Of a stretch of DNA of 64,000 bases, positions 26,472 to 53,702 are shown piece after piece (within the stretch, counting starts at the first letter, position 1; every line of letters starts with the position of its first letter). The DNA comes from a bacterium (GTDB taxonomy: Bacteria > Patescibacteriota > Minisyncoccia > UBA6257 > GWB1-50-10): assembly GCA_002686365.1 (NCBI GenBank), contig NZBZ01000004.1, positions 27,079-91,078 on the forward strand. Direction: 5' to 3'. The position numbers and the translations under genes are program-made. A model generated the notes under the pieces. The model was not told the origin of the DNA, ran no database searches, and saw only the letters and a program-made list of their open reading frames with translations.

Positions 26472-26542
26472 GATTGATTTTGTTTGTATAAAAACAGGAA
26501 CCTTTTGGAGGTTCCTTTTCGTGGACGGCCGAGTTGGTTCGG

Positions 26543-27142
26543 TCAGGCGGCTATCTTAGCGATTTGGATAGCCTTTTGTCGCACCCAGCTTACTCTTGCG
26601 AGGTCTTGTATGAGCTGTATGGCCTCTTCGGTGCTTCTGGTCAGCTCTACAGCTGTGTCGTCTTGTCCCTCGACTCGTTGTCCGAGCGCCTTCTCAGCCT
26701 CTCCTCGGTTGGTATCGTTGAGGTTGCATACGATTATTCGTAGTGCAACTCGTGCTGTTCCATCGTTCATGATGAGGGCTTCGGCTGTTTCCATGTCTAC
26801 ATGAACCCAGCTGACCTTACTCAGATCCACCTGCTCTGGCTGTTCACTGGTCAACACCACCTCGTCCGGTACGTGGGTGAGATGTATCGTGAGTATGTTC
26901 CCGGCATCATCTCCCAGATCCCGAACTATCTTCAGGTTTCTTACGGTGGTTTTCGTGGTGATTTCCACCGAACCCTCTGGCATGCCGAGTAGTTCTCTTA
27001 TCTCCGACATTGCCTGCTCGGCAACTCCCATTCCTCCCATGAGCATGCGGACCCCGACTTCTTTGTCGTCTGGCATTTGCTCGATGAAGCCATCCAGCCC
27101 TGGGGAGTTAAATATGGTGGGCATTCGTTCTTCCCTTCTCAT
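26543..27142 (-). CDS. Hypothetical protein (GC-rich islet D)
   Basis: 199 aa, acidic; composition differs sharply from flanking genes. Confidence 0.4.
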   Translation of the reverse strand: MRREERMPTIFNSPGLDGFIEQMPDDKEVGVRMLMGGMGVAEQAMSEIRELLGMPEGSVEITTKTTVRNLKIVRDLGDDAGNILTIHLTHVPDEVVLTSEQPEQVDLSKVSWVHVDMETAEALIMNDGTARVALRIIVCNLNDTNRGEAEKALGQRVEGQDDTAVELTRSTEEAIQLIQDLARVSWVRQKAIQIAKIAA

Positions 27143-27299
27143 CCATGAGTCTGTGGGCTGTTAGGCCCTTTTTGGCGCGTAAGGCGCGAGCGCGGATCCG
27201 AATTTAGGGTATCTTCTTTCTGTTTATTTTGCAATATTTTGCCATTATTTTGCGTTTTGAACAGTGGTTTCCGGAGCTTTTTTGAGATATAATGGTCTT

Positions 27300-31977: not shown

Positions 31978-32337
31978 ATGAAGGATATTGTACTTTTTCA
32001 GTCAGTTCCATTGCAGGAGAGGATAAACTTTGCCCGTCATTTGCATCTTATGATTAAGACGGGCCTTTCTTTGGTTGATGGGCTGCGTCTGATTCAGGAT
32101 CAGACTCCATCCAAGTCTTTAAAGAGGATTGTTACGGATCTTATTAAAGAGATAAATAATGGACACTTCCTTTCTGAGGGACTTAAGCGATATCGTCGTG
32201 TATTTGGCGAGTTTTTTGTGAGTGTGGTTGAGATTGGAGAGAAGAGTGGGAATTTATCAGAAAGCTTGCTTCATCTTGCTGTTGAGCTTCAGAAGAAGAA
32301 GGAGCTGCGGCAGAGGTTCGATGTCGTCCAGCCCTAA
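31978..32337 (+). pseudogene. pilC: PilC/GspF N-terminal fragment truncated by GC-rich islet E
   Basis: 119 aa matching the cytoplasmic N-terminus of GspF (compare with the intact copy at 44316); composition switches to GC-rich at about 32300, where the reading frame terminates. Confidence 0.6.
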
Positions 32338-32799
32338 TCGCTCGGCGAGCTGAGAAAGCTCGTTGTCTCCAAAGAGACTGTATTCTCGCTCCCGCATGGA
32401 AAGAAGTCTGTCAAAGAAGCGGCTGGGCTTCGTATCATACTCCGCACGCTCACCAAGCTCGTCACGGATCCGCTCGCGTTCAACATCGACATTCTCAGCT
32501 GGTATTCGGCCGCGCAGCAAAAGCCGATCGAACTTCCTCTTCACGAAGCTATCGACAAACGCACTCGCGGCCAGAAGCATGAAACAGGAGGCGCCGATGT
32601 AGTCTACCCACGTATCCCCACGCGCTTGCAGTTCTTCCGGAATCGAGTAGAACCGCACCTCGTGAAACCATGCTCGAAGCCTGTCTATCCCATAGGGGAC
32701 GAGAAAGAAGATGGCGTAGATGAGGACGGGCAGACTGAGACCACACATTGTGGCTCTGATTCTCCACAATGCTTGCTTTGCACGCTCAAACTCCCCCAT
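32257..32799 (-). CDS. Hypothetical membrane protein (GC-rich islet E)
   Basis: ATG with AGGAGG SD 9 nt upstream; one TM helix; its C-terminus is read through former pilC sequence. Confidence 0.4.
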   Translation of the reverse strand: MGEFERAKQALWRIRATMCGLSLPVLIYAIFFLVPYGIDRLRAWFHEVRFYSIPEELQARGDTWVDYIGASCFMLLAASAFVDSFVKRKFDRLLLRGRIPAENVDVERERIRDELGERAEYDTKPSRFFDRLLSMREREYSLFGDNELSQLAERLGLDDIEPLPQLLLLLKLNSKMKQAF

Positions 32800-32967
32800 C
32801 TCCCGACCTCCTATTGACAAAAATCTACGTATGTGTTACAGTAGATTCTTATTGTGGTAGGATGACATCTGCTCATTAAAAACTGAGGTCTCCCTCCTTC
32901 ACAGGGAGAAGCGCCGTAGCACGTTGGTTTGGGCGCTTCTCCACTGTTTGAAGAAGGGAGATAGACC

Positions 32968-33330
32968 GTGCTTATAGAAGTGCCTGATGACTTCGGCGAA
33001 CGTCTCATCAATCTGTTGGACAAGCTCGACGCCAAATCGTATGCGCGCATAGCAACCGCTCTGCACGCACAACGTCTACTCCGCCAGTTGAAGGTCAGCG
33101 ACGCACCCGGCTCCGTTTGCCGGAAGTGTTGGAAACAGGTTGATCCCATCGTCTGCGCGTTCACAAGAGATGACCACTCTGACGAGGCGGCGGTTTCTGT
33201 GACCGATGCTGTGGAGGAGATTCTCGACTGCATAAACTTCAGAGACGCCGCTGACACTCCAATCCGCGTGGATCTGGTCATCACGCCACAGCATGAGATC
33301 GCCGAGCCACAGCCCGGTCTTACAACGTAG
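32968..33330 (+). CDS. Hypothetical protein (GC-rich islet E)
   Basis: GTG start with AAGGGAG SD. Confidence 0.35.
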   Translation: MLIEVPDDFGERLINLLDKLDAKSYARIATALHAQRLLRQLKVSDAPGSVCRKCWKQVDPIVCAFTRDDHSDEAAVSVTDAVEEILDCINFRDAADTPIRVDLVITPQHEIAEPQPGLTT

Positions 33331-33472
33331 TGTAATGCGATACGCTACCAGCGTAAACGAGCCGCCCTTTGGGTGGCTTTTCCATTCCTTCCCCACCGTC
33401 TCGTCATTACAGCCCGTCCCACTTCACGTATACTCGCCTTACCCCAAACCAGACCAACATGAGGGAAGGCAC

Positions 33473-33889
33473 ATGACTCCGAACGCCGGGCGTTCACAAC
33501 CGTCCTCAGAATCAGGCGACGTCGGATCCTCAAACGCCTTCATAGACTCTTGGTACGAGAAACTAGGGCAGCAAGTCCCCCGCCCCGTGCTGGACGACGC
33601 CCTAAACGCCATGTTTGATGGCGGCCACGAGGCCCGGATCTCCTTGTATGAGTTTCTAGATTCGGACGAATTACAGGCCAGCGAGAAAGCTGCACGCATG
33701 TGGTCGTTCTACGTCGAGTGGGCCAAAGTGCAGCGCGCTCTCAAACTCTTGCAGCTCGACAGGGCAGAAGACGCTCAGGAACTGCTAGATGATCCGCTCG
33801 TCTTTCAAGGGCGTGTGCCAGACTTACAGCTTCAGGTTGATAGCTACACCTTAGAAAGGATTTCGTTTATGGAAGTAGGTCAGTTCTAG
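33473..33889 (+). CDS. Hypothetical protein (GC-rich islet E)
   Basis: ATG with GAGGGAAGG SD; the ORF track extends upstream to 33293. Confidence 0.3.
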   Translation: MTPNAGRSQPSSESGDVGSSNAFIDSWYEKLGQQVPRPVLDDALNAMFDGGHEARISLYEFLDSDELQASEKAARMWSFYVEWAKVQRALKLLQLDRAEDAQELLDDPLVFQGRVPDLQLQVDSYTLERISFMEVGQF

Positions 33890-33958
33890 CTTTTAGCTTC
33901 ATTTCCGCCAGAGGCGGATCCGCCTTGGGCGGAAGCTATTAGCTTCATTAGCTTATAG
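33886..33958. repeat. AGCTTTTAGCTTCATT...AGCTTCATTAGCTTATAG repeat unit interrupted by two small GC hairpins (TCCGCCAGAGGCGGA, TCCGCCTTGGGCGGA)
   Basis: Member of the repeat family also at 42489, 45532, 46727, 48496, 52577 and 54403. Confidence 0.7.
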
Positions 33959-33962
33959 ATTT

Positions 33963-33977
33963 TATAATAGATGTATG
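33963..33977 (+). promoter_or_regulatory. TATAAT box 6 nt upstream of the ATG of the pilin gene (leaderless-type promoter)
   Basis: TTTTATAATAGATGTATG module conserved at 45570 and 46766. Confidence 0.5.
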
Positions 33978-34463
33978 TTTTTGTTTTTCCTAAAAGCTAA
34001 AAGCTATAAGCTAAAAGCTGAAAGGGGTTTTACTCTTTTAGAGGTGCTTGTCGTGTTAGCTATTATTGCTGTGGTTGGGGCAGTGGTTTTGATGCTGATA
34101 AATCCTTCAGCACGATTTGCAAAATCGAGAAATAATGAGCGAGCTGCGGATTTGAATGTGATTTTGAATGCAGTAAGTCAGAACATTGCTGATAACAAGG
34201 GGAGTTTTTCCTGCAGTGCTGGGTACTTGCCTTCTACTTCGACGCGGATGGCTGTTGGGTTGGGAGATTATGATATTGTTCCATGTCTTTTTCCAACATA
34301 TCTTGTTGTTGTGCCTTATGATCCGAATGGGGAGGGTGTATTTTATACAAGTACTTCGAGTTATGATTCGGGTTATGACATTTTTCAGGATTCAGTTACG
34401 GGTAGGGTTATAATAGAGGCGCCGCTTGCAGAGCTTAGTGAGACGATTTCTGCGACGAGGTAG
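33975..34463 (+). CDS. Type IV prepilin-like protein with 18-aa leader (MFLFFLKAKSYKLKAERG then FTLLEV)
   Basis: Class III signal: Gly then F-T-L-L-E-V plus hydrophobic helix; the leader is encoded by the AAAGCTATAAGCT repeat. Confidence 0.75.
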   Translation: MFLFFLKAKSYKLKAERGFTLLEVLVVLAIIAVVGAVVLMLINPSARFAKSRNNERAADLNVILNAVSQNIADNKGSFSCSAGYLPSTSTRMAVGLGDYDIVPCLFPTYLVVVPYDPNGEGVFYTSTSSYDSGYDIFQDSVTGRVIIEAPLAELSETISATR

Positions 34464-34516
34464 TTTTTCTGGTCTTCTTGTGCGCGCGGTTTTTTTGTTG
34501 TTTAATACTCATTGTT

Positions 34517-35260
34517 ATGGAAGATATAAAACATATTATTTTAGAGATTCGTGCCGGTACTGGAGGGGATGAGGCGGCTCTTTTTGCTGCAGATTTGGAG
34601 AGTATGTATCAGAAGTATGCGGAAGATAAGGAGTTGAAGTTTGTGAAACTTGATTCGAGCGCTAACTCATTGGGGGGATATAAGAGTTTTTCAGCCCGGA
34701 TTTCAGGAGAGGGAGCATATAAGGACTTTCAGCACGAATCAGGAGTTCATCGTGTTCAGAGGATTCCTGCCACAGAGAAGTCTGGACGAGTTCATACCTC
34801 AACTGCATCAGTTGCAATTTTGCCTGAGGTAGAGCCGGAGGAGATAGAGATTAATCAATCTGACTTGGAGATTTCGTTTTTTCGGTCTTCGGGTCCTGGA
34901 GGGCAGAATGTGAATAAGGTGGAGACTGCAGTGCGTATTCTGCATAAGCCGACTGGTCTTGTGGTTTCATCGCAGGCTGGTAGGGCGCAGCATGCAAATC
35001 GTGAGACTGCTTTGTCTATGCTTCGGGCAAAGCTCTATGAGGCAAAGCGTGAGCAGGAAGTAGGGTCTGTTTCAGAGCTTCGGCGGGAGCAGATTGGTTC
35101 TGCGGAGCGGGCAGAGAAGATTCGTACGTATAATATTCCGCAGGACAGGATTACAGATCATAGGATTGGGAAGAAGTGGGGTAATGCTACAAAGATTTTG
35201 GAAGGAGATTTTGGAAAGATTGTGAAGGGGTTTCAAAAGGCGGAAAAAGGTAAGAAGTAA
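34517..35260 (+). CDS. prfA: Peptide chain release factor 1-like protein lacking N-terminal domain 1
   Basis: IRAGTGGDEAALFA, PAT tripeptide (RF1-type), GGQ motif SGPGGQNVNK; only about 247 aa. Confidence 0.7.
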   Translation: MEDIKHIILEIRAGTGGDEAALFAADLESMYQKYAEDKELKFVKLDSSANSLGGYKSFSARISGEGAYKDFQHESGVHRVQRIPATEKSGRVHTSTASVAILPEVEPEEIEINQSDLEISFFRSSGPGGQNVNKVETAVRILHKPTGLVVSSQAGRAQHANRETALSMLRAKLYEAKREQEVGSVSELRREQIGSAERAEKIRTYNIPQDRITDHRIGKKWGNATKILEGDFGKIVKGFQKAEKGKK

Positions 35261-35290
35261 AAATCTCATCTTATAAGATGAGATTTTTTA

Positions 35291-36682
35291 CTATCCCTCC
35301 AGAATATCGATGTCGCGTTGGAATTTTTGGGCTTTTACTACAACTGGTTCTCCGTATACCCATCTATAGGTATACCATCTGCCTCCGGAGTAGTACTGGG
35401 CTGCGGCGCATCTCTCAGAGAGAATTTGAGCATCTACAATGTGTTTGTTTTCGCTCACATAGTTTCTGCAGGAGCGGGAGTTTAAGGAGTCTCTTAAATA
35501 GAGCGCTGTTGCTGAGAATGCGTCTGCATTGTTCCATGGGTTGGGCGGATTGTTTCCTGTTACTTTTTTAATTGAGGACTCATATAGTTTCCATGTAGAG
35601 GGAATGAATTGCGCTGGTCCCATTGCTCCTCCGTGATTTCCATCTCGAAGAATTGGACAGGAGACATACGCGGCGCGGGAGCTTGGATTAATATCTAGTC
35701 GTTTTAAGATGTCTTCGAAGACTGGAATGTCTTTTGAGCGCATAACAGTAGTGCCTGTTTGAGGGAGTACTTTGTCGTATCTGCACTGACCTACATTTCT
35801 GCCTAGGGCGGATTCTTGGTTTAGGATCGCTAGGATGAAGGCGGCGCGTACCCCTGTAGCTTTTTCCGCAAGTTTCGCATATTCGTATGCTTTTTCAAAT
35901 GTGAGTTCTCCGCCGCCCAGAAGCTGGAATATGCGTTTTCGGATTTCTGCCGCAGTTTCCTGTGACTCTTTTAGGAGTTTTTGGTATTTTGATTCTTCTC
36001 CCTCGGTTATTTCCAGAAGATCTTCTTTTTCGTTTTGTGTGTACTGGACATTTTTTTTCTGTCCCTGCTGGGCAGTCTTTAAATTTTTAGTGTCTTCTTT
36101 TTCGAGTACAAGCTCACTTTTTTTAGTGACTAGTTCTCCTCGGAGATTTACTATTTCCTGAAGAGCAAGGCGTAGGTTGTCTTGTACGCGCGCGATTTCG
36201 TTTATTTCTCCGAAGAAGTCTGAAATTTGTTCGTTTGCCAGAAGGATTTGGATAAGGCCCTGTCTGTCCTGTTCGTAGATTTGCTGGACAGCGCTGGCTA
36301 ATGCGTCTTTGTGGTCGTCTATTCTATTTTCAGTGTGGTTAATATTTTTTTGTGTTTCTATAATGTTCTGTCCAACTTTTTCGATTGTAATGTCAGTTGC
36401 CTGTATTTGGAGATTAAGTTTTTTAATTCTGGAGTTTAAGGAGTATATCTCGTTTTTTAGAGTTTTTCCCTGTGTTTGGTATGTTTCTACCTGCCCGCGC
36501 TGCTCTTCTATCTGTTCTTCCAATTCTTCGAGTTCACGCTCGAGTTCTTCTCTTGATCTATTGTCGTCCTCTGCTGCAATGGCTTGCTGCGCAGAAAGAT
36601 AGCTCGTTTGCGTAAAGACGATGGTTTGTATAAGTAGTATTGCTAGTATGAGGATTTTTAGTCTTTCCATCGGGTTTATCAT
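35291..36682 (-). CDS. Secreted coiled-coil protein with C-terminal lytic transglycosylase (MltB-like) domain
   Basis: Signal peptide, long heptad-rich region, C-terminal GGAMGPAQFIPSTW motif. Confidence 0.6.
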   Translation of the reverse strand: MINPMERLKILILAILLIQTIVFTQTSYLSAQQAIAAEDDNRSREELERELEELEEQIEEQRGQVETYQTQGKTLKNEIYSLNSRIKKLNLQIQATDITIEKVGQNIIETQKNINHTENRIDDHKDALASAVQQIYEQDRQGLIQILLANEQISDFFGEINEIARVQDNLRLALQEIVNLRGELVTKKSELVLEKEDTKNLKTAQQGQKKNVQYTQNEKEDLLEITEGEESKYQKLLKESQETAAEIRKRIFQLLGGGELTFEKAYEYAKLAEKATGVRAAFILAILNQESALGRNVGQCRYDKVLPQTGTTVMRSKDIPVFEDILKRLDINPSSRAAYVSCPILRDGNHGGAMGPAQFIPSTWKLYESSIKKVTGNNPPNPWNNADAFSATALYLRDSLNSRSCRNYVSENKHIVDAQILSERCAAAQYYSGGRWYTYRWVYGEPVVVKAQKFQRDIDILEG

Positions 36683-36754
36683 ATCACAAAACCCCCACGC
36701 CTATGCATAGGTGTGGGGGTGTACCTTTTTAGTTGTTGTGATTTTGGATGAGTT

Positions 36755-37486
36755 TTATTTCTTTTCTTCTTGTTTTTCTGCTTTTGCAGGCTGGCCTCCT
36801 TTATCTTCTACAGGCGTTGCTCCTTCGCCTTCCGCAGGTGTTTCTCCTTCGCCTTCTGCGGGCGCTTCTCCTTCACCTTCTGTTCCTTCTGCTCCTTCTT
36901 CACCTTCTGCTGGTTCCGGCTCTTCAATCTCTTCTTCTTTTGGTTCGGAGATTGTTGCGACTACTGTTTCAGGCTGAACGAGTACTTTTACATTTTTTGG
37001 AATTTCCAGATTGCTTACATGGAGTGTGTCTCCTGCCTCTTCCAGGCTCTCGAGGGATATTTCTATTTTATGCGGGAGATCTGCGGGCAGAGCTTCTATC
37101 TCAAGCTCTTCTGTAACTTTTACCAGAATGAGTCCAAGTTTAATTCCTGGAGCTTCACCTGTGAATTCAATGGGTATGTGAGTTTGAATTTTTTCATCCA
37201 TCCGGATTTGGTGCAGATCAACGGATAAATACTTTCCTGTTACAGGATTTTTCTGCACCTCTGCTATTAGCGTAGGGACTTTTTCTTTTCCTCCAATGGA
37301 AACTTGGATGATAGTGTGTTCCCCTGCTTCTTTGTAGACTTTGTCGAATTCTTTTTCAGAAATACTAATATGTTTATTTTTTTCTCCGTGTCCGTAGATT
37401 TCCGCAGGAATGAGCCCTTCTTTGCGGAGGGTTTTTACCTTTTTGCCAAGGACTGTGCGGGTTTGAATGTTTAGTTCAATTGCCAT
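36755..37486 (-). CDS. rplY: 50S ribosomal protein L25 / general stress protein Ctc with Glu/Pro/Ala-rich tail
   Basis: MAIELNIQTRTVLGKKVKTLRKEGLIPAEIYGHG start typical of L25. Confidence 0.85.
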   Translation of the reverse strand: MAIELNIQTRTVLGKKVKTLRKEGLIPAEIYGHGEKNKHISISEKEFDKVYKEAGEHTIIQVSIGGKEKVPTLIAEVQKNPVTGKYLSVDLHQIRMDEKIQTHIPIEFTGEAPGIKLGLILVKVTEELEIEALPADLPHKIEISLESLEEAGDTLHVSNLEIPKNVKVLVQPETVVATISEPKEEEIEEPEPAEGEEGAEGTEGEGEAPAEGEGETPAEGEGATPVEDKGGQPAKAEKQEEKK

Positions 37487-37496
37487 ATTTGTGGAA

Positions 37497-37778
37497 TTAT
37501 TCTTTTTCCTTCTTTTCTATCTTCTTTTTAGCTCTTGTTACTTTTTTGGTTTTCTTTTTCTGTATTTTCTCTTTGTTTGCTTTTGCAGCGCGCGCTTTGA
37601 AGCGTTCAGCTCGGCCTGCTGTGTCAATTAGGGTCTGCTTGCCTGTATAGAAGGGGTGGCAGTTAGAGCAGATTTCCACCTCTAGTTTTTCTTTTGTTCC
37701 TCCAATAGTAAAAGAGTGCCCGCATGCGCAGGTTGTTTTTGCTTTAGGATAGTAGGCTGGATGTATATCTTTTTTCAT
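37497..37778 (-). CDS. rpmE: 50S ribosomal protein L31
   Basis: [10 protein letters not shown] start; CxxC...CxxH zinc ribbon. Confidence 0.9.
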
Positions 37779-37797
37779 AACGTACTAGATTGTAGGG

Positions 37798-37817
37798 GTT
37801 TTTAGCTTGTTTGGCAA
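37798..37817 (+). repeat. Left copy of 20-bp perfect direct repeat GTTTTTAGCTTGTTTGGCAA flanking islet F
   Basis: Identical to 38652-38671. Confidence 0.85.
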
Positions 37818-37920
37818 CCCCTGTTTTCGGGTTTTGTAAAAAAATCCGCCTCGGCAGTGAGATGCTTTGGCGGGTGTACGATGTTTGCGGGGCGTGATGG
37901 CTCGGCCACGTTCGCGCGGG

Positions 37921-38571
37921 TCAGGCGGTGAGTGCGACCCAGACGTTGGGATCTTGTCCCCATTTGCCCGTAGGAGGATGCGCGACGATGACTTCCACGA
38001 GAGGCTTCCACTTCGTGAGCATGTCGGTGTTGTCATTTGCCGCACAGGCTATGAGTATTCGTAGGATGTAGTCGATTCCTCCCTCCAGACACTTCTGGGG
38101 CGTTTCGGGGAGGCCGATGTTCCTGACAGTGGAGCACACTTCTTGGGAGAAGGCTTCGTATGCCTCGTCGAGGCCTTTCGGCATCTCCAGGCCTTCGGCC
38201 AGCTTGTCGAGTATGATCGTAGATACGTACCCGTCGTCTGGAACGCTATCTACGAAGAGTGTCTCGAGCTCGCCTTTGGTGATAGGGCCGTATGCAAGGA
38301 GATTCTCCCACAGCTCTTCGTCGGCCCATTCGGGTCGCGTGTCAGGTACTGGATTGCTTGCCGAGAGATGAATTACTCTCTCGACTCTTTCTGTCAGCGT
38401 TCTCAGAAGTGCCTGTTGGATCTTCTTTGTGTCGCAGTCGTCTCCTGATGTCAGGCTCCATCCAGCTTCGGTTGCCTGGAGAATGGGCCTGATTGTTTCC
38501 TCCAAGGCATCAACTGTTGTCTCGTCCGTGTGTTCGAGCAGAGCGACTTGCAGACGTTCCCAGCTTTCCAT
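37921..38571 (-). CDS. Hypothetical protein (GC-rich islet F)
   Basis: ATG with AGGGAGG SD 9 nt upstream; 216 aa acidic. Confidence 0.45.
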   Translation of the reverse strand: MESWERLQVALLEHTDETTVDALEETIRPILQATEAGWSLTSGDDCDTKKIQQALLRTLTERVERVIHLSASNPVPDTRPEWADEELWENLLAYGPITKGELETLFVDSVPDDGYVSTIILDKLAEGLEMPKGLDEAYEAFSQEVCSTVRNIGLPETPQKCLEGGIDYILRILIACAANDNTDMLTKWKPLVEVIVAHPPTGKWGQDPNVWVALTA

Positions 38572-38651
38572 TGGGGAGCCTCCCTTTTGGCGGCGCTGGC
38601 GTTTAGGGCGTCACTGTGTTTTTTGTACTTGTTTTTTACTTGTGTGTCAAT

Positions 38652-38671
38652 GTTTTTAGCTTGTTTGGCAA
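38652..38671 (+). repeat. Right copy of 20-bp perfect direct repeat GTTTTTAGCTTGTTTGGCAA
   Basis: Identical to 37798-37817; brackets an 834-bp GC-rich insert. Confidence 0.85.
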
Positions 38672-38688
38672 GGTTTTGTTGACAATCA

Positions 38689-38720
38689 GGACCCCTTCCT
38701 TATAATAAGGGCGAGCTTAG
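38689..38720 (+). promoter_or_regulatory. Consensus sigma70-type rRNA promoter TTGACA-17 nt-TATAAT
   Basis: TTGACAATCAGGACCCCTTCCTTATAATAAGG read directly, about 110 nt upstream of the 16S gene. Confidence 0.6.
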
Positions 38721-38823
38721 AGAAGCTGGTTTTTTTCTGCCCTGACAGATGTTTGACATATGTAGTAGTAGGTAATTAACAGAGGTGTTAATAATAGAGA
38801 ATTTTTTTAGTTGTCCCAATTTA

Positions 38824-40312
<1,489 letters not shown>

Positions 40313-40614
40313 CGACTATACAATTTGTATAGTACCTTCTGCGGAAGGTAACTCGCCTTTGCATAAAGCTTTGGCGAGAAAAACCCGCCTTTGCTCACTT
40401 TGTGAGCTATGGCGTGGTAAAGGATGTTGGCCGAGGAGTCCTATGTGTTTCGGCTTCTGTTTAAACTCTTATGTGTGCGAAAGCACACGAATTATGACCT
40501 GCCTGTTGGTAGGTAGGTTCGTGTGAATTTCGTACACACTATTTGAGTGTGGACAGATTCTTGGGACAACTAAAAAAATTCTTTACTTTATCTTTTAGAG
40601 ATTTTGTTTAACAC

Positions 40615-40645
40615 AAAAACAGCCAATAGGCTGTTTTTGTGTTTT
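40615..40645 (+). terminator. Rho-independent terminator AACAGCC-AATA-GGCTGTT then TTTTGTGTTTTT
   Basis: Read directly at the end of the rRNA trailer. Confidence 0.6.
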
Positions 40646-40701
40646 TCTTGGCATTGTCTTTGTGTGGAGCTTCAATAGTAAAAGGTGATATACTACTGGT
40701 A

Positions 40702-41163
40702 ATGGAAGAGCAACAACAGCCTATTCAGTCTGCGCAGCCCGCCTCTGGCGCGGCAAAGTCCGCCTCTGCCCAAAGCTCTGGTCAGGCAAAGAGGGTGCTT
40801 ATTGTTGAAGATGAGCCACTTTTGGGGAATCTTTTGAAACAGCGTCTTGGGAAAGAGGGCATCAGTGTTACTCTTGTTCGTGATGGAGAGGAGGCACTTC
40901 GTTCTTTACAGAACGAAGTGCCTGATTTGGTTCTTTTGGATATTATTCTGCCTAAGGTTTCCGGCTTTGAGCTTATGGAGAAGATTAATAGTGATCCTGC
41001 ACTTGCAGGGAAAAAGGTTTCTATTGTGGTGATTTCTAATTTGGGACAGGAGGGAGATGTTCAGAAGGGACAGCAGCTTGGAGCTATAGGGTATTTTGTA
41101 AAGGCACAGCTTTCAATCGAGGGCTTGGTTTCGCAGGTTAGGGAGTTTTTTAGTAAGAATTAG
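40702..41163 (+). CDS. Stand-alone response regulator receiver protein (CheY-like) with Gln/Ser-rich N-terminus
   Basis: VLIVEDEPLL...LVLLDIILPKVSGFEL...IVVISN receiver-domain motifs (phospho-acceptor Asp in LLDI); ORF track begins at 40639. Confidence 0.75.
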   Translation: MEEQQQPIQSAQPASGAAKSASAQSSGQAKRVLIVEDEPLLGNLLKQRLGKEGISVTLVRDGEEALRSLQNEVPDLVLLDIILPKVSGFELMEKINSDPALAGKKVSIVVISNLGQEGDVQKGQQLGAIGYFVKAQLSIEGLVSQVREFFSKN

Positions 41164-41284
41164 GCATAGGAGTGGGATTTCTCTCCATATTGTTATCCCC
41201 AGTAACTTTGCATAAAATTTGTTATAATACTAGTATTAATGAAACTTTACTCAAGGTCGAACCCGTTATTTTAGAAGTGTTTTT

Positions 41285-41863
41285 ATGAAAAAAGGATTTA
41301 CACTTATTGAGCTTCTTGTTGTAATCGCGATTCTTGCTGTACTTGCGACAGCAGTTGTTTTGGTTTTGAACCCTGCAGAGCTTATTAGGCAGAGCCGTGA
41401 TGCAACGAGAATATCTGATTTAGAGGCGATAAATACTGCTTTGGGATTCTATTTGGCTGATGTTGATCCTTCTAATATTAGTCTTGCTGAAGCATCAAGT
41501 GATGTTTGTCCAGCAACTGCGCGATGCACTTTTGCAAGCAGTACTTCTCCACTTGGAGGTAGGACGTGTGTTGTGCCTAGCGCAGCAGACTTATCTACGG
41601 TAGGTGGCGCTGGATGGATTGACGTGAATCTTGGAGCAATTACAGGAGGTTCCCCGCTTTCGTCACTTCCAATTGATCCTCGTAATACTGCTCCGCATCT
41701 TTTCTACTCATATGCGTGCGATAGCGCGAGTACATGGTATGAGATTAATGCGGATATGGAGAGCATAAAGTATAGTTCAGGCTCTTCAAATGTAGAGGCT
41801 AATGATGGAGGAGATAATGATAATGTGTATGAGGTTGGAAATGATCCGGGACTTGATCTGTAG
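41285..41863 (+). CDS. Type IV pilin (short leader MKKG then FTLIELLVVIAILAVLA), candidate major pilin
   Basis: Canonical class III signal and N-terminal hydrophobic helix; 192 aa. Confidence 0.8.
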   Translation: MKKGFTLIELLVVIAILAVLATAVVLVLNPAELIRQSRDATRISDLEAINTALGFYLADVDPSNISLAEASSDVCPATARCTFASSTSPLGGRTCVVPSAADLSTVGGAGWIDVNLGAITGGSPLSSLPIDPRNTAPHLFYSYACDSASTWYEINADMESIKYSSGSSNVEANDGGDNDNVYEVGNDPGLDL

Positions 41864-41898
41864 ATAGTTCTTGATTTGTTTTTGGGAAGCGTCGGCAT

Positions 41899-42519
41899 TT
41901 GGTCGGCGTTTTCTTTTCTAGTAAAATAGAGCTTATGACTTTATCCTTTCTAACGGGGTTTACCATTTTGTTTTTGACCGTAGGTCTGTTTTTTCAGATA
42001 TTTTTGAGAGGCAGGATTCGGTTTTTTCAGTATCTATTTTTTATAGCTCTTTTGGGAATTTTGGGGGTTTATCTGTATCTTGTGTATGGACAGTATGTGC
42101 TCTGGCGTGATTCAGGTCCTCCGTCCAGCTTTTTTGTTCCTCCGCATAGAAGCGCTTTGTATGTTTTTGGGTATCATTTTACTCGTTTTGGTCTGCAGTA
42201 TCTTATTTCTTTAGGGGTTTCGATTTTGTTTTTCTTTCTTTCTTTGCGTCTGAATCAAAGATTTGGAGAGAGATTTTTTGAAAGAGAAGAGTTGTGGCTT
42301 GGGGCATTTTCTATTTTTCTTTTAGGGAATCCAGTATGGAATTACGCATGGATTTATTACCTTTTACTTCTAGGTCTTTTGTCAGTCTTGGGGTCTCTTT
42401 TTGCGCAGTATGTTTTTCGTATTCGTGAGAGATTTCCTTTGTACTGGTTATGGATTCCGTGTGCTCTTGGAGTTATACTTATACAAAAGCTTATAGCTTA
42501 TGGCTTCATTAGCTTTTAG
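41899..42519 (+). CDS. Polytopic membrane protein, unknown function
   Basis: 5-6 TM helices; its C-terminus KLIAYGFISF is encoded by the AGCTTATAGCTTATGGCTTCATTAGCTTTTAG repeat. Confidence 0.4.
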   Translation: MVGVFFSSKIELMTLSFLTGFTILFLTVGLFFQIFLRGRIRFFQYLFFIALLGILGVYLYLVYGQYVLWRDSGPPSSFFVPPHRSALYVFGYHFTRFGLQYLISLGVSILFFFLSLRLNQRFGERFFEREELWLGAFSIFLLGNPVWNYAWIYYLLLLGLLSVLGSLFAQYVFRIRERFPLYWLWIPCALGVILIQKLIAYGFISF

Positions 42520-42588
42520 CTTTTTGTTATCTTGTCGAATTTTTTCCGTAAAGCTAACAAGCTATAAGCTAACACACTAGAAGCTAAT
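42489..42588. repeat. AGCTTATAGCTTATGGCTTCATTAGCTTTTAGC ... AAGCTAACAAGCTATAAGCTAACACACTAGAAGCTAAT repeat block
   Basis: Family member; overlaps the stop of 41899..42519 and precedes pilB. Confidence 0.7.
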
Positions 42589-45531: not shown

Positions 45532-45566
45532 CTAGCTTATAGCTTTTAGCTTCATTAGCTTTTAGG
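45532..45566. repeat. TCTAGCTTATAGCTTTTAGCTTCATTAGCTTTTAG repeat followed by the TTTTATAAT-ATG module
   Basis: Family member. Confidence 0.75.
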
Positions 45567-45581
45567 TTTTATAATAGATGT

Positions 45582-46726: not shown

Positions 46727-46762
46727 TATAGCTTATGGCTTTTAGCTTCATTAGCTTTTAGG
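46727..46762. repeat. TAGCTTATGGCTTTTAGCTTCATTAGCTTTTAGG repeat plus TTTTATAAT module
   Basis: Family member. Confidence 0.75.
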
Positions 46763-46779
46763 TTTTATAATAAATGTGT

Positions 46780-48042
46780 ATGTTTTCGTTTTTTCTAAAA
46801 GCTATTACCTATAAGCTAAAAGCTAGGTCCGGTCAGTCTCTTATTGAGATTATTGTTGGGCTTGCGATTGGCGCGGTTCTTATTGGCGCTGCTGTGGTAG
46901 GTATTACATTTGTGCTTCGTTCTGGATCTTTGAATCAGCAGTCTCGAACTGCCTCAGGAGTTAGCCGGGCTCTTCTTCAAGAGGTACGGTCTGTATCGGA
47001 TTCAAGCTGGCTGGATGTTTATAATCTTGATAGAGGAATTTCTCATTATATTGTTGCAAGCGGTACTTCTCTTTCTGCGTTTGAAGGGAAGGAGGGTGTT
47101 GTAGTTAACGCGCCTCAGGACGAGCTTCAAGCTCATTGGAATTTTGATGAGTCAGTTGAGAATATTGTTCACAATTCCGTTGCTTCAGGTGTTCGCGGAG
47201 ATATTATCGGTACAATGCCTGTTTTTTCGTGCCGTGTGGGGACGTGTCGTTCGTTTGAGGGCTCTCAATATATGTTTTTTGGAGATGATTCGTCTTTAGA
47301 TCTTCAGGCTGATTTTTCAGTGGCATTGTGGATGTATCCGGATGCTGTTCCTGTTTCTAATGTCGGGCTTGTGAGTAAGGAGGGGTCTCCGTATGGCTAT
47401 GGCATTACATATGACTATGATGTGGATGGGCAGGTTCGATTTTTTGTTCGGGATGAGGGAAGCAGTGTGCAGGCGCCAATGCCGCCTCAGGGCTGGCATC
47501 ATGTTGTTGGAGTATTTGGCAGCTCCCCAAGTTCGTTTCTTAATCTTTACGTAGATGGTCTTCTTGCGGCGACAAGCACATTAGGATTTTCTGCGTCGGG
47601 CGCTTCTGGAGATTTTTTTGTTGGTCGGCATAGTTCCGGTTTTTTTGATGGAATGATTGATGATGTTCGCGTGTATTCTAGGGCGTTTGACGCGAATGAT
47701 GTTTGGTCTCTTTATAATGGAAGAGTTTTTGTTCGTTCTTTTTATGTGGAGGACGTGTTTCGGGATTCTGTTGGAGAAATTGTGTCTTCAGGAGGAAGTC
47801 TTGATCCATCTACTTTGAAAGTTACGATTGTTGTTGAGTGGAATCCTGTTGGATCTGCGGCAGCGCGTCATGAGGTGGAGGATTATTTTACTCGATGGAG
47901 GAATGATGTATTTCATCAGAGTGATTGGTCAGAGGGGCCGGAGTCTTTAGTTCCTATTCCAGAGCCGGGAGGCGGATTTTCTAATTCATCGAATATTCGA
48001 TTTTCTCCCGGGTCTATTCAGATTGATGAGTTAAATGAGTGA
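46780..48042 (+). CDS. Prepilin-type protein (pseudopilin) with LamG-like lectin domain, second paralogue
   Basis: Leader MFSFFLKAITYKLKARSG then QSLIEIIVGLAIGAVL; LamG-like motifs SFEGSQYMFFGDD...GWHHVVGVF...LYVDGL...VRVYSRAF; ATG 46780 preferred (7 nt after TATAAT) over ORF-track 46774. Confidence 0.7.
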   Translation: MFSFFLKAITYKLKARSGQSLIEIIVGLAIGAVLIGAAVVGITFVLRSGSLNQQSRTASGVSRALLQEVRSVSDSSWLDVYNLDRGISHYIVASGTSLSAFEGKEGVVVNAPQDELQAHWNFDESVENIVHNSVASGVRGDIIGTMPVFSCRVGTCRSFEGSQYMFFGDDSSLDLQADFSVALWMYPDAVPVSNVGLVSKEGSPYGYGITYDYDVDGQVRFFVRDEGSSVQAPMPPQGWHHVVGVFGSSPSSFLNLYVDGLLAATSTLGFSASGASGDFFVGRHSSGFFDGMIDDVRVYSRAFDANDVWSLYNGRVFVRSFYVEDVFRDSVGEIVSSGGSLDPSTLKVTIVVEWNPVGSAAARHEVEDYFTRWRNDVFHQSDWSEGPESLVPIPEPGGGFSNSSNIRFSPGSIQIDELNE

Positions 48043-48495: not shown

Positions 48496-48531
48496 AGCTT
48501 TTAGCTTCTAGCTTCATTAGCTTTTAGGGGA
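48496..48531. repeat. GAGCTTTTAGCTTCTAGCTTCATTAGCTTTTAG repeat
   Basis: Family member. Confidence 0.75.
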
Positions 48532-48541
48532 GAATCTCTTT

Positions 48542-48574
48542 TAGCTATAAGCTATAAGCTATAAGCTATAAGCT
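48542..48574. repeat. (AGCTATA)x5 heptanucleotide tandem repeat ending 5 nt before the ATG of the ATPase gene
   Basis: Read directly. Confidence 0.85.
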
Positions 48575-48579
48575 ATTTT

Positions 48580-50940
48580 ATGTTAGTAGGTACACTTTTT
48601 GGAGCTGTTTTACTTCTAGTTGTTGGGGTGGTAGCGTTTTTTTTCTTTCGTAAATCGCAGGGAAATACACTTGTTGAGAAACTTAGTCTTGAGCTTTTTC
48701 TTGTTCGGCTTCCATATACTTCTTCTGAAGGTAAGGATTTAAAGGAAGAGATAGGTTTTTTTGAACAGCTTTTGAGTTCTCTCTCGTCTTTTAAAAAACC
48801 TTTTGTGTTTGAAGTTGCTGTTCCTCATGTGGGGGAGGAGATTCATTTTTATGCTGCTGTTCCTTTGCATCTTGGAGAGACGTTTTCTCGGCAGGTTCAT
48901 GCTGTTTGGGCTGGGGCAGAGGTAGAAAAGGCTTCTGACTATACAATTTTTAGTCCTCATGGAGTATACGAGGGCGCGTGGGTGAAGCAGAGGGATAAGT
49001 TTATTCTTCCGGTCCGCACTTATCAGGATGTAGACGGAGATCCTTTTTCTTCAATTGTTGGCGCGCTTTCAAAGATTCAGGAGATTGGAGAGGGGGCTGT
49101 GATTCAGGTTCTTGTACAACCTGCGTCTCGAGCTTTGCGTACGAAGATTTTGAGCGCGCTTCGTAGACTGCAGAAGGGGGAGGAGTTTAAGAAGGTGATT
49201 CGGTCTTCGTTTTCTTTTGAGAGTATTACGGAAGCAGTTGTTCCTAAAGACAATACAAAACAGAAAGAGGAGGGCTTTCGGGAGAAGACAGTTGAGGATG
49301 TTGCGGTTCAGGCGCTTCAGAAGAAGGCCTCGACTCCTTTATTTCGTGTGAATATTCGGCTTCTGGCGTCCGCCCCCACAAAGGAGAAGGCAGAGATTCT
49401 TCTCTGGAGTTTGACCTCTGGATTTTCTCAGTTTGGAGCTCCAGACCGAAATGATTTGAAGATCGTGAGGGTGCGGTCAAATAAGGATTTTGCCCACAAG
49501 TTTTCTTTTCGGGAGTTTTCAAAGAATCAGGAGATGATTTTGAATTCGGAAGAGCTTACGAGCATGTTTCATTTCACCACTCCATTTTCTGAGATTCCTA
49601 AGGTGAAGTCCTTAAAGGCTAAACAGTCAGCTCCTCCTGCAGAGCTTCCAAAAGAGGGCGTTCTTATTGGAGAGAGTGCGTATAGAGGGGAGAAGAAAGA
49701 GGTGCGTGTTGCTAACGATGATCGCAGGCGGCATGTCTATCTTATTGGGCAGACAGGAACTGGGAAGTCTAATCTTATTACGAATATGGCTGCCTATGAT
49801 GTAGCTCACGGCAAGGGAGTTGCGGTTATTGATCCTCATGGGGATTTAGTGGAGGCGGTTTTGAGGCAGGTGCCTGAATCCCGTGCTCAGGATGTTGTTG
49901 TATTTGATCCTTCAGACCTTGAGCGTCCTTTGGGGCTTAATATGATTGAGTATAATCTTGATAGACCGGAGGAGAAGACGTTTATTGTAAATGAGATGGT
50001 TAGTATTTTTGATAAGCTTTATGACTTGAAGGCTACTGGCGGGCCTATGTTTGAGCAGTATATGCGAAATGCTCTCCTGCTTTTAATGGAGGATTCGGCA
50101 AATGAGCCCGCGACCCTTATGGAGGTTGCGCGAATATTTACTGATAAGGGATATCGGGATAGGAAGCTTCAGCGTATTAAAAATCCAACAGTTCAGGATT
50201 TTTGGCAGAAGGAGGCAGAGAAGGCCGGAGGAGAGGCTTCGCTTCAAAATATTACTCCGTACATTACTTCTAAGTTCAATACATTTACTGCAAATGATTA
50301 TATGCGTGTAATTATTGGGCAGGAGAGGTCTTCATTTAATTTTCGGCAGATTATGGATGAGGGAAAGATACTTCTTATTAATCTTTCTAAAGGAAGAATT
50401 GGAGATATAAATGCGAATCTGCTTGGAATGATCTTTGTAGGTAAGATTCTTATGGCTGCGCTCTCTCGGGTTGATATTAAGGAGGATGAGAGGAGAGATT
50501 TTAATTTGTATATTGATGAGTTTCAGAATTTCACAACAGATTCCATTGCTACAATTCTTTCAGAAGCTCGGAAGTATCGTTTGAATCTTGTGATTGCACA
50601 TCAGTTTATTGCGCAGTTGTCGGATACGATACGGGACGCAGTATTTGGAAATGTTGGATCATTTGTTTCGTTTCGCGTTGGTGTGCAGGATACGGAGACT
50701 TTGATAAAGGAATTTGCTCCTGAATTTGATGAGCATGATCTTTCTAATATTGATAATTTTAATGCGTATGTGCGGCTTTTGGTGGATAATCAGACAACGA
50801 AGCCGTTTAATATTCGTACGATTCCGAGTGGAAAGGGAAGTGACGAGATTGCGGAGCGTCTTCGGGGCATATCTCAAGAGAAGCATGGAAGGCCGAGAGA
50901 TGAAGTTGAAGATAGTATTTATCGACGTCTACGCGATTGA
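48580..50940 (+). CDS. Membrane-anchored TraD/VirD4/FtsK-HerA-like P-loop ATPase (type IV coupling protein-like)
   Basis: N-terminal TM helix, Walker A LIGQTGTGKSN, Walker B NLYIDEFQNF, C-terminal TraD/TraG-like region; 786 aa. Confidence 0.7.
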   Translation: MLVGTLFGAVLLLVVGVVAFFFFRKSQGNTLVEKLSLELFLVRLPYTSSEGKDLKEEIGFFEQLLSSLSSFKKPFVFEVAVPHVGEEIHFYAAVPLHLGETFSRQVHAVWAGAEVEKASDYTIFSPHGVYEGAWVKQRDKFILPVRTYQDVDGDPFSSIVGALSKIQEIGEGAVIQVLVQPASRALRTKILSALRRLQKGEEFKKVIRSSFSFESITEAVVPKDNTKQKEEGFREKTVEDVAVQALQKKASTPLFRVNIRLLASAPTKEKAEILLWSLTSGFSQFGAPDRNDLKIVRVRSNKDFAHKFSFREFSKNQEMILNSEELTSMFHFTTPFSEIPKVKSLKAKQSAPPAELPKEGVLIGESAYRGEKKEVRVANDDRRRHVYLIGQTGTGKSNLITNMAAYDVAHGKGVAVIDPHGDLVEAVLRQVPESRAQDVVVFDPSDLERPLGLNMIEYNLDRPEEKTFIVNEMVSIFDKLYDLKATGGPMFEQYMRNALLLLMEDSANEPATLMEVARIFTDKGYRDRKLQRIKNPTVQDFWQKEAEKAGGEASLQNITPYITSKFNTFTANDYMRVIIGQERSSFNFRQIMDEGKILLINLSKGRIGDINANLLGMIFVGKILMAALSRVDIKEDERRDFNLYIDEFQNFTTDSIATILSEARKYRLNLVIAHQFIAQLSDTIRDAVFGNVGSFVSFRVGVQDTETLIKEFAPEFDEHDLSNIDNFNAYVRLLVDNQTTKPFNIRTIPSGKGSDEIAERLRGISQEKHGRPRDEVEDSIYRRLRD

Positions 50941-52126: not shown

Positions 52127-52579
52127 ATGACTATCTATTGGATACTAACTGTTTTAATTGCGGCATTGCCTGTGGCAGAGCTTCGTGGGGCAATACCTTT
52201 GGCTGTTTTTGTATGGAATATTTCTCCGCTTACTGCTTTTTTTCTTGCTGTTATTGGAAATTTTTTGATAGTTATTCCGCTGCTATGGTTTTGGCATTTT
52301 GCTGTTCACAGACTCGCAAAGAGATATCATTTTGTGCATCGTTGTAAGGAGTGGATGTTTGATAGGACGCATCGCAGGCATGGCGGGAAGTTTGAGCTTT
52401 TGAAGGAGTTTGCATTGTTTTTCTTAGTCGCAATTCCTTTGCCTTTTACCGGAGCATGGACTGGAACTGTTGCTGCTTATCTTTTTGGCGTGCCGTTTTG
52501 GAGGGCAGTTTTATGGATTGGTCTTGGAATTATTTTCGCAGGAATTTTGGTTGGTGTGGGGGTGGGGCTTTTTGTGTAG
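52127..52579 (+). CDS. COG2426-like small polytopic membrane protein
   Basis: PVAELRGAIPLAV motif, four TM helices. Confidence 0.5.
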   Translation: MTIYWILTVLIAALPVAELRGAIPLAVFVWNISPLTAFFLAVIGNFLIVIPLLWFWHFAVHRLAKRYHFVHRCKEWMFDRTHRRHGGKFELLKEFALFFLVAIPLPFTGAWTGTVAAYLFGVPFWRAVLWIGLGIIFAGILVGVGVGLFV

Positions 52580-52610
52580 CTTATAGCTTTTAGCTTCATT
52601 AGCTTTTAGC
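52577..52610. repeat. TAGCTTATAGCTTTTAGCTTCATTAGCTTTTAGC repeat
   Basis: Family member, overlaps the stop of the preceding gene. Confidence 0.75.
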
Positions 52611-52645
52611 ACGAAAAAAACCGCTTAATGCGGGTAGTAGTTGGC

Positions 52646-52687
52646 GGACGCCTTTTCTCTCGGATGAGTAGGCGTCCGCCAATGCGT
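52646..52687. promoter_or_regulatory. 12-bp-arm inverted repeat TTGGCGGACGCC...GGCGTCCGCCAA at the left edge of islet G
   Basis: Read directly. Confidence 0.4.
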
Positions 52688-53113
52688 TCTCTAGCTGGGT
52701 CTTGGGTGATGCGTGCATGCCTTTCACCGGTGTTTGCACGCCCTCTTTGTGAGCTGGGCAAGCACCGCAGTTTTCCCCCGTTTCCCGGCACTCTACAGCG
52801 CCCTCGTTGATACCCACCTACACTCTCTCCGTAGAGAGAGGAGGTGGGTATCAGGACGTGTCGTGCTTGTCAAAGCAGATGCGCATTTCTGCGCTTAACT
52901 CCTTGTGGCTGGGTCTGACGTAGTCCCTTGTGGGTTTTATCTCAGGCCACAGTAGGTAACTAGCTAGGAGTGTATCACAATTTTTGTGTTTTGCAATTTC
53001 ATTGATTTTGGGGAGTTTGTGGAGATTGACAGAGGTTTTATGGGGTGATATATAGAAGTTAGGTCTTGAGTCGTGTCTTGAAGTCTGGGGCCTCTGGATT
53101 GGGAAGGAAGGAC

Positions 53114-53350
53114 ATGCCAGACACATCTTTTGGCGGTGACAATTATGGCGAGTGCTCTGACTGTGGCGATGAGGCCACTTGCAGTCATTGGGGACCCCTT
53201 GCTCCTCTGGGAGAGGTGTGGCGTTTCTGCGAGCACTGCTTTGGCTGGCGCAGGCATGAGCACGATGAGCATGATGGGGGCGGTGAGGAGTTTTCTCCCA
53301 AGCCCCTTGGTCATACATGGCCTGAACAGGATCCACCGCAGGCGTCTTAG
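53114..53350 (+). CDS. Small Cys/His-rich hypothetical protein (islet G)
   Basis: GGAAGGAAGG SD; CSDCGDEATCSHW...CEHCFGW zinc-ribbon-like spacing; several overlapping ORFs in this GC-rich stretch make the call uncertain. Confidence 0.3.
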   Translation: MPDTSFGGDNYGECSDCGDEATCSHWGPLAPLGEVWRFCEHCFGWRRHEHDEHDGGGEEFSPKPLGHTWPEQDPPQAS

Positions 53351-53408
53351 CAGCTTAGCATTGCAGCAGCAGTGTGAGGCGCGCGATTAGAGAGGATGTG
53401 AGAGGCTT

Positions 53409-53702
53409 ATGTCAAAATCTCTTACTGGGTGGGAAGTTCACGCTGGCAGGAGACGAGGCAGTGGTGTGGTTTTCAGGATTTGGATTCCACGTGCGCGGCA
53501 GTACGCAACCTCGGCTCTGTCTGAGTGCAGCGTACGGGCCTGGATCGAACGGGATTTCACTGAGCGTGACGTGTTATGGTGGGACATCAATTCCCTGGTG
53601 GATAACGCTAGGGCGTTTGGAGCCTCTTGGCAGCCGAGCGAGAGACGTAACAAGCGTCGCATGGGTCGTTGGGCGAGGGAGTTGCGACGAGTAGCGGCAT
53701 AA
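53409..53702 (+). CDS. Hypothetical basic protein (islet G)
   Basis: GAGAGG SD 8 nt upstream of ATG. Confidence 0.3.
   Translation: MSKSLTGWEVHAGRRRGSGVVFRIWIPRARQYATSALSECSVRAWIERDFTERDVLWWDINSLVDNARAFGASWQPSERRNKRRMGRWARELRRVAA

Follow-up and report, generated by a model that had tools for sequence, protein, structure and literature searches.

In an uncultured marine Patescibacterium, a perfect 20-bp repeat that matches part of the rpmE promoter brackets a compositionally foreign gene lying between rpmE and the 16S rRNA gene

The stretch analyzed here (the window: 64 kb of contig NZBZ01000004.1 in assembly GCA_002686365.1, positions 27,079 to 91,078 of the forward strand) comes from an uncultured marine Patescibacterium and contains a perfect 20-bp direct repeat, GTTTTTAGCTTGTTTGGCAA, at positions 37798-37817 and 38652-38671 (0 mismatches), with 834 bp between the copies. 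The L25 gene and rpmE, which encodes ribosomal protein L31, are the left neighbors of the bracketed DNA and the 16S rRNA gene is its right neighbor; a single open reading frame (ORF), here called p216, lies in between. A sequence-only reading of the window had interpreted the arrangement as an insert flanked by the attachment (att) core of a site-specific integration event. The underlying observation, a perfect 20-bp repeat bracketing 834 bp of G+C-rich DNA, was borne out at the same coordinates with 20/20 identity. As to its origin, our analyses point elsewhere: the repeat is a segment of the rpmE promoter in duplicate. On the reading that we prefer, and to which we give an even chance, the duplication took place in the event by which a foreign ORF was acquired into, or replaced a gene in, a conserved expression slot lying between the back-to-back promoters of two essential genes. 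The features of the locus are as follows (coordinates, strand, and description; nt, nucleotides).

37497..37778, minus strand: rpmE (ribosomal protein L31), 93 amino acids, from the ORF list, with a PF01197 match on the identical protein in public contigs
37789..37817, minus strand: rpmE promoter, TTGCCA-17-TACAAT, scoring 10/12 in a consensus scan and aligned with the rpmE promoters of the related contigs L020, L023, L024, and L027
37798..37817, no strand: left copy of the 20-mer, native/orthologous, consisting of the -35 hexamer (37812-37817) and 14 nt of the rpmE promoter spacer
37818..37845, no strand: AT-rich frame of host-like composition from the left repeat to the terminator, holding the A-run 37838-37844, which on the minus strand forms the T-tail of the terminator
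37838..37874, minus strand: intrinsic terminator of the slot gene, hairpin CCGCC-AAA-GCA-loop-TGC-CGA-GGCGG followed by AUUUUUUU, from folding
37921..38571, minus strand: p216, 216 amino acids, acidic (isoelectric point 4.3), of foreign composition, from the ORF list
38579..38585, minus strand: Shine-Dalgarno sequence AGGGAGG, 7 nt before the p216 ATG, read from the sequence
38622..38650, minus strand: likely p216 promoter, TTGACA (38645-38650)-17-TACAAA (38622-38627), read from the sequence
38631..38651, no strand: third copy of the repeat unit, diverged (16/21) and arranged in tandem with the right copy
38652..38671, no strand: right copy of the 20-mer, with no usable minus-strand -10, separated by 7 nt from the 16S -35 hexamer downstream
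38679..38706, plus strand: 16S rRNA promoter, TTGACA-16-TATAAT, 12/12 with the consensus, its downstream leader conserved with L020
38823..40312, plus strand: 16S rRNA gene, Rfam RF00177, 1428 bits

The repeat and the rpmE promoter

Read on the minus strand, the left copy is TTGCCA-AACAAGCTAAAAAC and comprises the -35 hexamer and 14 of 17 spacer positions in a promoter whose -10 hexamer, TACAAT, ends 10 nt before the rpmE ATG. The segment can be aligned with the rpmE promoters of L020, L023, L024, and L027, in each of which it is present as a single copy (these relatives are 62-76% identical in L25, and two of them hold another slot gene). The left copy is therefore the native one. Behind the right copy, the consensus scan found no acceptable -10. 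The repeat as a whole is a duplicated stretch of rpmE promoter.

The repeat is specific and sharp edged. No further match to the 20-mer was found in the window on either strand when up to 3 mismatches were allowed, and two matches occurred in 0 of 100 dinucleotide shuffles; with only two copies in the window, it is not the common genome-wide repeat that the sequence-only reading had considered as an objection. Neither side showed significant similarity past the 20 nt (p = 0.13 and 0.37), and a longer repeat composed of the 20-mer plus GGTTTTGT with a 12-nt indel was not significant. A repeat scan and inspection by eye revealed no inverted repeat within or across the 20-mer and no dyad symmetry, nor did the scan detect terminal inverted repeats at the bracketed unit.

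A search of both strands of the window for the repeat unit, at a level of at least 16/21, gave three positions and no more. The third is the diverged copy at 38631-38651, which stands in tandem with the right copy at a period of 21 nt and supplies the -35 hexamer of the predicted p216 promoter. The latter agrees with the rpmE promoter in 21 of 29 positions (-10 included) and was missing from the consensus-scan list because the last base of its -10 is A. The consensus 16S promoter that had been reported just after the right copy is indeed there (TTGACA/TATAAT, 7 nt on), with a spacer of 16 nt instead of the 17 given originally. It is probably the only rRNA promoter of the genome. The 16S rRNA gene itself is not followed by a 23S gene, and no tRNAs are present in the 64 kb.

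The bracketed 834 bp have a G+C content of 0.55, rising to 0.571 in a G+C-rich core (37846-38610), versus 0.43 in the host fraction of the window. The outer 28 bp on the left (37818-37845) and 41 bp on the right (38611-38651) are AT rich and host-like in composition.

Both repeat copies and the insert were 100% identical in MEGAHIT contig k127_877497, SPAdes NODE_816, and TARA_SAMEA2619974 scaffold_54, and the left junction was also found in CEPX01183585.1 and NODE_353334. Scaffold_54 (L041; 137 kb) represents a second strain, with zero differences across 37700-38800. Since identical junctions recur in independent assemblies, the structure is not an assembly artifact. That a foreign fragment was joined to the contig through a shared k-mer might be suspected from the abrupt change in composition and from two short contigs that stop 66-79 nt inside the insert, yet is scarcely credible given that the MEGAHIT, SPAdes, and Tara assemblies agree at both junctions across different samples and a second strain, and that the insert carries host-type expression signals.

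The sequence of a precise empty site would be TAGGGGTTTTTAGCTTGTTTGGCAAGGTTTTGTTGACAATC and that of a circle junction GTGTGTCAATGTTTTTAGCTTGTTTGGCAACCCCTGTTTTCGG. Neither an empty site nor any polymorphism was found among the assemblies that reach the site (five, all occupied), and the collections searched contained no close relative. Exact matches to the 20-mer were found in 4 stretches of JGI metagenome contigs and 10 of GTDB species genomes; the only related one is the Tara contig CEPX01183585.1, which is occupied, the remainder being single occurrences in unrelated organisms with no wider similarity to the window, as expected by chance. There was no match among the 2.9 million viral contigs of IMG/VR. 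The unit appears to be fixed and invariant in the sampled population and is not an autonomous mobile element.

As an aside on rpmE, no Shine-Dalgarno sequence precedes this gene in the window and its -10 lies 10 nt from the ATG (37779-37794), so that its mRNA is probably leaderless or nearly so, as it probably is in L024 and L027 too; the rpmE leaders of L020 and L023 are longer.

The slot and its occupants in related genomes

The single minus-strand ORF with an AGGGAGG Shine-Dalgarno sequence described in the sequence-only reading (37921..38571) is present and, by its coding-type G+C pattern together with a distant full-length homologue, a real gene. Its G+C content at the first, second, and third codon positions (GC1 to GC3) is 0.62, 0.41, and 0.62, with GC3 values of 0.31-0.43 in ten host genes. 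A HMMER search of 1.84 billion representatives recovered only p216 itself and one distant protein, P0122 (E 5e-6, full-length alignment), encoded at 210-818 of an unrelated contig of high G+C content, L026 (Logan SRR22387992). P0122 has about 57% G+C and shares its contig with ComM-like and TrmB-like genes of 65-73% G+C. As P0122 lies below the G+C content of its contig and p216 above that of its own, the family is atypical in both known hosts, in opposite directions. No repeat flanks the P0122 locus.

No match to p216 was found in Pfam, PHROGs, PADLOC, or NCBIfam, and tblastn searches of phage and plasmid collections and of IMG/VR gave no relative. A second copy of the insert or of p216 was likewise not found in the 64-kb window. 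AlphaFold models were of low confidence (mean predicted local distance difference test [pLDDT] score of 54 for p216 and 46 for P0122), and a Foldseek search of the PDB returned nothing below E 0.7. The possibility that the insert encodes a structured RNA was discarded, there being no Rfam match at E <=1 and both the coding pattern and the full-length protein homologue arguing for a protein gene. With low confidence, we would guess that p216 is a cytoplasmic accessory protein, e.g., an immunity or anti-defense factor. Its atypical composition, its absence from the orthologous site in relatives, and its patchy homologue all indicate that p216 has been horizontally acquired.

To place the locus in context, loci of relatives were retrieved through L25 protein homologues and, for one contig, through an ORF of 89-99 amino acids that occupies the slot. 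The L25 homologues put the window in the Patescibacteria, with Paceibacteria-like neighbors such as Jorgensenbacteria and Wolfebacteria, and the L25 identities group the contigs as ((window,(L020,L023)),(L024,L027,L028)). The rpmE and 16S rRNA genes are divergent neighbors in L020, L024, and L027. Between the start of rpmE and the 5' end of 16S, L024 has 218 bp and L027 has 388 bp, compared to 1044 bp in the window (190 bp after subtraction of the 854-bp unit). L024 and L027 have an uninterrupted rpmE-16S spacer with no gene in between, and in L024 the -35 hexamers of rpmE and 16S overlap (TTTGACAA). The uninterrupted spacer that had been suggested as a check therefore exists in these distant relatives, while every assembly that reaches the site is occupied. 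None of the relatives examined has p216 at this site.

In L020, L023, and L039, the slot is occupied by a different ORF family of 89-99 amino acids (3 members in 5.8 billion sequences), the codon composition of which is native to the respective genomes. In all three, the terminator of the window (37846-37874) is kept together with flanking bases, there 3' of the unrelated small ORF. It has 27 invariant positions across the window, L039, L023, and L020 (BLAST E 1e-5 and 3e-4, same relative position), and its left flank is also significantly similar to that of L023 (p = 0.000, 0/2000 shuffles). Within the window the terminator is unique. Given the L25 grouping, the terminator is most simply regarded as ancestral. 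Native sequence thus continues past the left repeat, and the 20-mer is therefore not a boundary between host and foreign DNA. The bracketed DNA is therefore a mosaic of a probably vertically inherited terminator, a foreign ORF, and modules resembling the rpmE promoter. In L039, the outer neighbor of the terminator is not the rpmE promoter, and none of the L020, L023, and L039 slot genes has a significant flanking repeat, imperfect repeats having been tested too. The AT-rich frame at 37818-37845 showed only marginal similarity to the L027 and L024 spacers (p about 0.05-0.06).

Two other candidate explanations were not sustained: a decayed second 16S promoter in the left flank, as in L027, was marginal only (p about 0.05), and the terminator hairpin as a viral cassette-end motif gave 10 matches in IMG/VR, all of them by chance and inside G+C-rich coding sequence.

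Some additional observations were made on these contigs. In L020, the closest relative, the slot terminator is separated from the rpmE promoter by some 440 additional bp (5050-5480), with a TTGACA-17-TAGACT promoter-like site and a G+C-rich stretch of long-range complementarity (GGTGTGTGTTG...CAACACACACC). This DNA could encode a small RNA; it had no Rfam match. A double hairpin, CCGCCAGAGGCGGA(T/C)CCGCCTT(G/T)GGCGG, is found in an intergenic region of the window (33905-33932) and just upstream of rpmE in L020 (5545-5575), and may be a dispersed intergenic element of the clade. Positions 1-34 of L023 (GCA_964457195.1, CAYWEG010000030.1) are an untrimmed Illumina adapter, AGATCGGAAGAGCACACGTCTGAACTCCAGTCAC, at the end of a public contig of a metagenome-assembled genome.

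Origin of the duplicated promoter segment

How might a piece of the rpmE promoter have come to lie on the far side of p216? In this clade, rpmE and 16S are divergent, with their promoters back to back, and the ancestor of the window, L020, and L023 would already have had a slot consisting of promoter, ORF, and terminator between the two. In the lineage of the window, foreign DNA carrying p216 would then most probably have replaced the resident small ORF and its promoter; p216 has the sigma-70-type promoter and Shine-Dalgarno sequence predicted for it and would end at a terminator that is older than the event and was inherited vertically. As repair sealed the event, 20 bp of the rpmE core promoter (the -35 with 14 spacer nt) would have been copied beyond the opposite end of the new DNA, possibly through repair of a staggered break or a short-homology template switch during capture of taken-up DNA. 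Such an insertion with target duplication would need no recombinase encoded by the element. Both the order of events and the repair mechanism are what we infer from the arrangement. The duplication may have been kept since it leaves rpmE with a complete promoter and the single 16S promoter with its upstream DNA: because the rpmE -10 is 10 nt from its ATG and the rpmE -35 is 7 nt from the 16S -35, an insertion without duplication would disable either the rpmE or the rRNA promoter, and selection for both would make the duplicated product the one that is seen. The repeat is further tied to the presence of the foreign gene by being found only in the lineage with p216.

Several points weigh against this account. 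The state before the event is deduced from relatives that are 74-76% identical in L25; as no close relative exhibits that state, parsimony over distant relatives is all that settles between insertion and replacement. No textbook mechanism would in one simple step keep the terminator and yet duplicate the 20-mer beyond it. Promoter modules were duplicated here at another time too, as the diverged third copy shows, and the perfect repeat could hence be a separate event. Finally, a recombinase may act in trans from another part of the genome, the search for such genes having covered the 64-kb window, where neither p216 nor about 60 other ORFs had a recombinase, integrase, or transposase domain.

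The third of these points leads directly to the main alternative, in which the repeat arose independently of how p216 came to the site. A 21-nt promoter module could have been duplicated locally, by slippage, template switching, or conversion, and retained because of a promoter or upstream-element function for p216 and/or the 16S promoter. The three copies of the unit, two of them in tandem at a 21-nt period, fit this well, as do the resemblance of the p216 promoter to the whole rpmE promoter (21/29 with the -10) and the nature of the other perfect repeats of 20-35 bp in the window, which are intergenic regulatory modules in duplicate rather than att sites. However, the perfect copy lacks a usable -10 and is hence not a working promoter copy; slippage or conversion would not usually copy 20 bp, sharply bounded, across 854 bp where flanking homology is lacking; and the repeat is confined to the lineage that carries the foreign gene. 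We regard this explanation as unlikely, if worth keeping in view. Integration of an 854-bp circular cassette (834 bp with the terminator, plus one 20-mer) at an att core of 20 bp, by a recombinase encoded elsewhere, strikes us as improbable. Under this model the common terminator would be the constant end of related cassettes whose cargo varies, and the model would readily account for the perfect, sharp-edged direct repeat, for the compositionally foreign cargo, and for the different ORFs found at one site in different genomes next to a conserved 3' end that contains a hairpin. Against it stand the lack of a recombinase in the 64 kb and of dyad symmetry in the 20-mer; the relatives' cassettes, which have no flanking repeat, and the L039 terminator, which is not beside an rpmE promoter; the absence of a second cassette, an empty site, or polymorphism in four assemblies and two strains; and the absence of the 20-mer from 2.9 million viral contigs, its other exact matches being as by chance.

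The att core proposed in the sequence-only reading is accordingly not supported: the left copy is rpmE promoter, a native terminator lies inside the repeat, neither a recombinase nor inverted repeats nor a dyad is in evidence, and no empty site was found. What does survive of the insertion interpretation is that the ORF is foreign and not at the site in relatives and that the repeat is probably a scar of its acquisition. A target-site duplication made by a DDE transposase acting on a nonautonomous element is close to refuted. Its main attraction is length, as the IS30-family element IS1630 of Mycoplasma fermentans generates variable target duplications of 19-26 bp (PMC2853133), a range that includes the 20 bp seen here. 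IS1630, however, needs a transposase and inverted-repeat ends; the unit described here has no terminal inverted repeats, the window has no transposase, the unit is single copy, and native sequence continues inside the left repeat.

Among documented systems, acquisition of p216 with duplication of the rpmE promoter segment is best compared to insertion with long target duplication, in which units without mobility genes are found, mostly in competent species (Nobusato et al. 2000; Furuta, Abe and Kobayashi 2010, PMC2853133), and in which the duplication often spans gene starts or stops, leaving the neighbors intact (PMC2853133). Common to those cases and to this locus are the lack of a mobility gene, a direct repeat that here too is probably a duplicated piece of the target, a functional signal spanned by the duplication, and DNA-uptake machinery. 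The screen of Furuta et al. required repeats of >30 bp, most being 26-500 bp, and its cases carry restriction-modification genes (PMC2853133). The repeat described here, by contrast, is 20 bp, below the criterion of about 30 bp, the cargo belongs to no recognizable family, and the bracketed terminator looks native. The documented cases also have an empty site in a sister genome, whereas here only the distant relatives L024 and L027 are uninterrupted. By analogy, and within these limits, the locus matches the class, with a gene that has no known relatives beyond one distant homologue.

The likeness to islands with att cores and to integron cassettes consists of short identical direct repeats, a conserved housekeeping site, variable cargo, and a 3' hairpin. 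Unlike att-core islands, the unit has no integrase in or near it, its repeat is a promoter core without dyad symmetry, and the occupants in relatives have no repeats. It also differs from an integron cassette in that its 28-nt terminator stem-loop with T-run is not an attC site, p216 has its own promoter, there is a single unit, and no intI is present in the window. Replacement-type flexible genomic islets, reportedly described by Rodriguez-Valera and colleagues, similarly have unrelated genes in one conserved frame between core genes, an arrangement also seen directly in this population at 32767-33460 (see below). Both these islets and the homology-facilitated illegitimate recombination that de Vries and Wackernagel are said to have described in transformable bacteria in 2002 differ from the p216 locus in that they normally leave no 20-bp direct repeat.

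Other islets in the window and gene gain in Patescibacteria

The p216 islet is one of eight in the window. Seven more G+C-rich islets are located at 6108-7053, 8128-8855, 9260-10171, 13465-14119, 26520-27200, 32301-33819, and 52630-53708, with G+C contents of 0.54-0.60 versus 0.43 for the host; together with the p216 islet they account for some 10% of the window. GC3 in their ORFs is 0.52-0.67, and none of these ORFs gave a match in Pfam, PHROGs, PADLOC, or NCBIfam. The uniform foreign composition of the islets suggests that they may come from one donor pool. None of the seven has a significant flanking direct repeat, the p216 islet alone of the eight having one, and no ends are common to the eight except for TAGCTT arrays at two borders.

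The islet at 32301-33819 provides direct evidence that ORFs are swapped in situ between near-identical strains in this population. The L041 strain differs from the window by 1 SNP (single nucleotide polymorphism) over 33461-42486, yet is 12-30% diverged inside the islet, where (at 32767-33460) a 120-amino-acid ORF (32968-33330) is exchanged for an unrelated 112-amino-acid ORF. The two have only the motif D-x-P-[IV]-RVDLVIT in common. As the substitutions are not adenine specific, the swap is not like the action of a diversity-generating retroelement. A T2SSF (PilC-like) gene at 31978-32337 is cut to 119 amino acids (profile 1-97 of 125) exactly at the start of the islet, which therefore arrived with loss of host coding sequence.

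Type IV pilus genes, which might function in DNA uptake, are also present in the window. Pili and competence genes are common in Patescibacteria, as are numerous genomic islands (PMC12455944). A 786-amino-acid VirD4/TraG-like coupling ATPase (48580-50940) adjoins the type IV pilus cluster. Intergenic arrays of heptads containing TAGCTT, mostly before pilin-like genes, were observed at 33887-34008, 42494-42581, 45533-45576, 46729-46820, 48499-48575, 52577-52609, and 54405-54426. They consist of a forward run, often followed by its reverse complement, and include a perfect 35-bp repeat (45542, 46738) upstream of two paralogous N_methyl plus Laminin_G_3 genes. The arrays, which have only TTTTAGCTT in common with the 20-mer, may be regulator binding arrays or promoter modules.

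A broader proposal would take the slot between the rpmE and 16S promoters as a dedicated cassette site of this clade, at which unrelated ORFs are exchanged as units of about 0.5-0.9 kb with a conserved hairpin end and the promoter 20-mer as crossover. We find this very doubtful. If true, exchange would proceed by a recombinase encoded elsewhere or by a recombinase-independent route, the site would amount to a minimal integron-like gene-capture site beside the only rRNA promoter of the cell, and the seven other islets, one of them ORF swapping, would be products of the same gene-capture process.

The locus thus reveals no new kind of mobile element and opens no long-standing question. Read as the acquisition of p216 with a duplicated promoter segment, it would be an example of how a very small, streamlined genome takes in a foreign gene at a point where two essential promoters are crowded into about 50 bp, a short promoter duplication leaving both neighbors functional. 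A recurrent variable slot beside the single 16S rRNA gene in one clade of Patescibacteria is suggested as well. Islets of foreign composition without known relatives, such as those in the window, would moreover bear on how these episymbiotic, probably competent bacteria gain genes.

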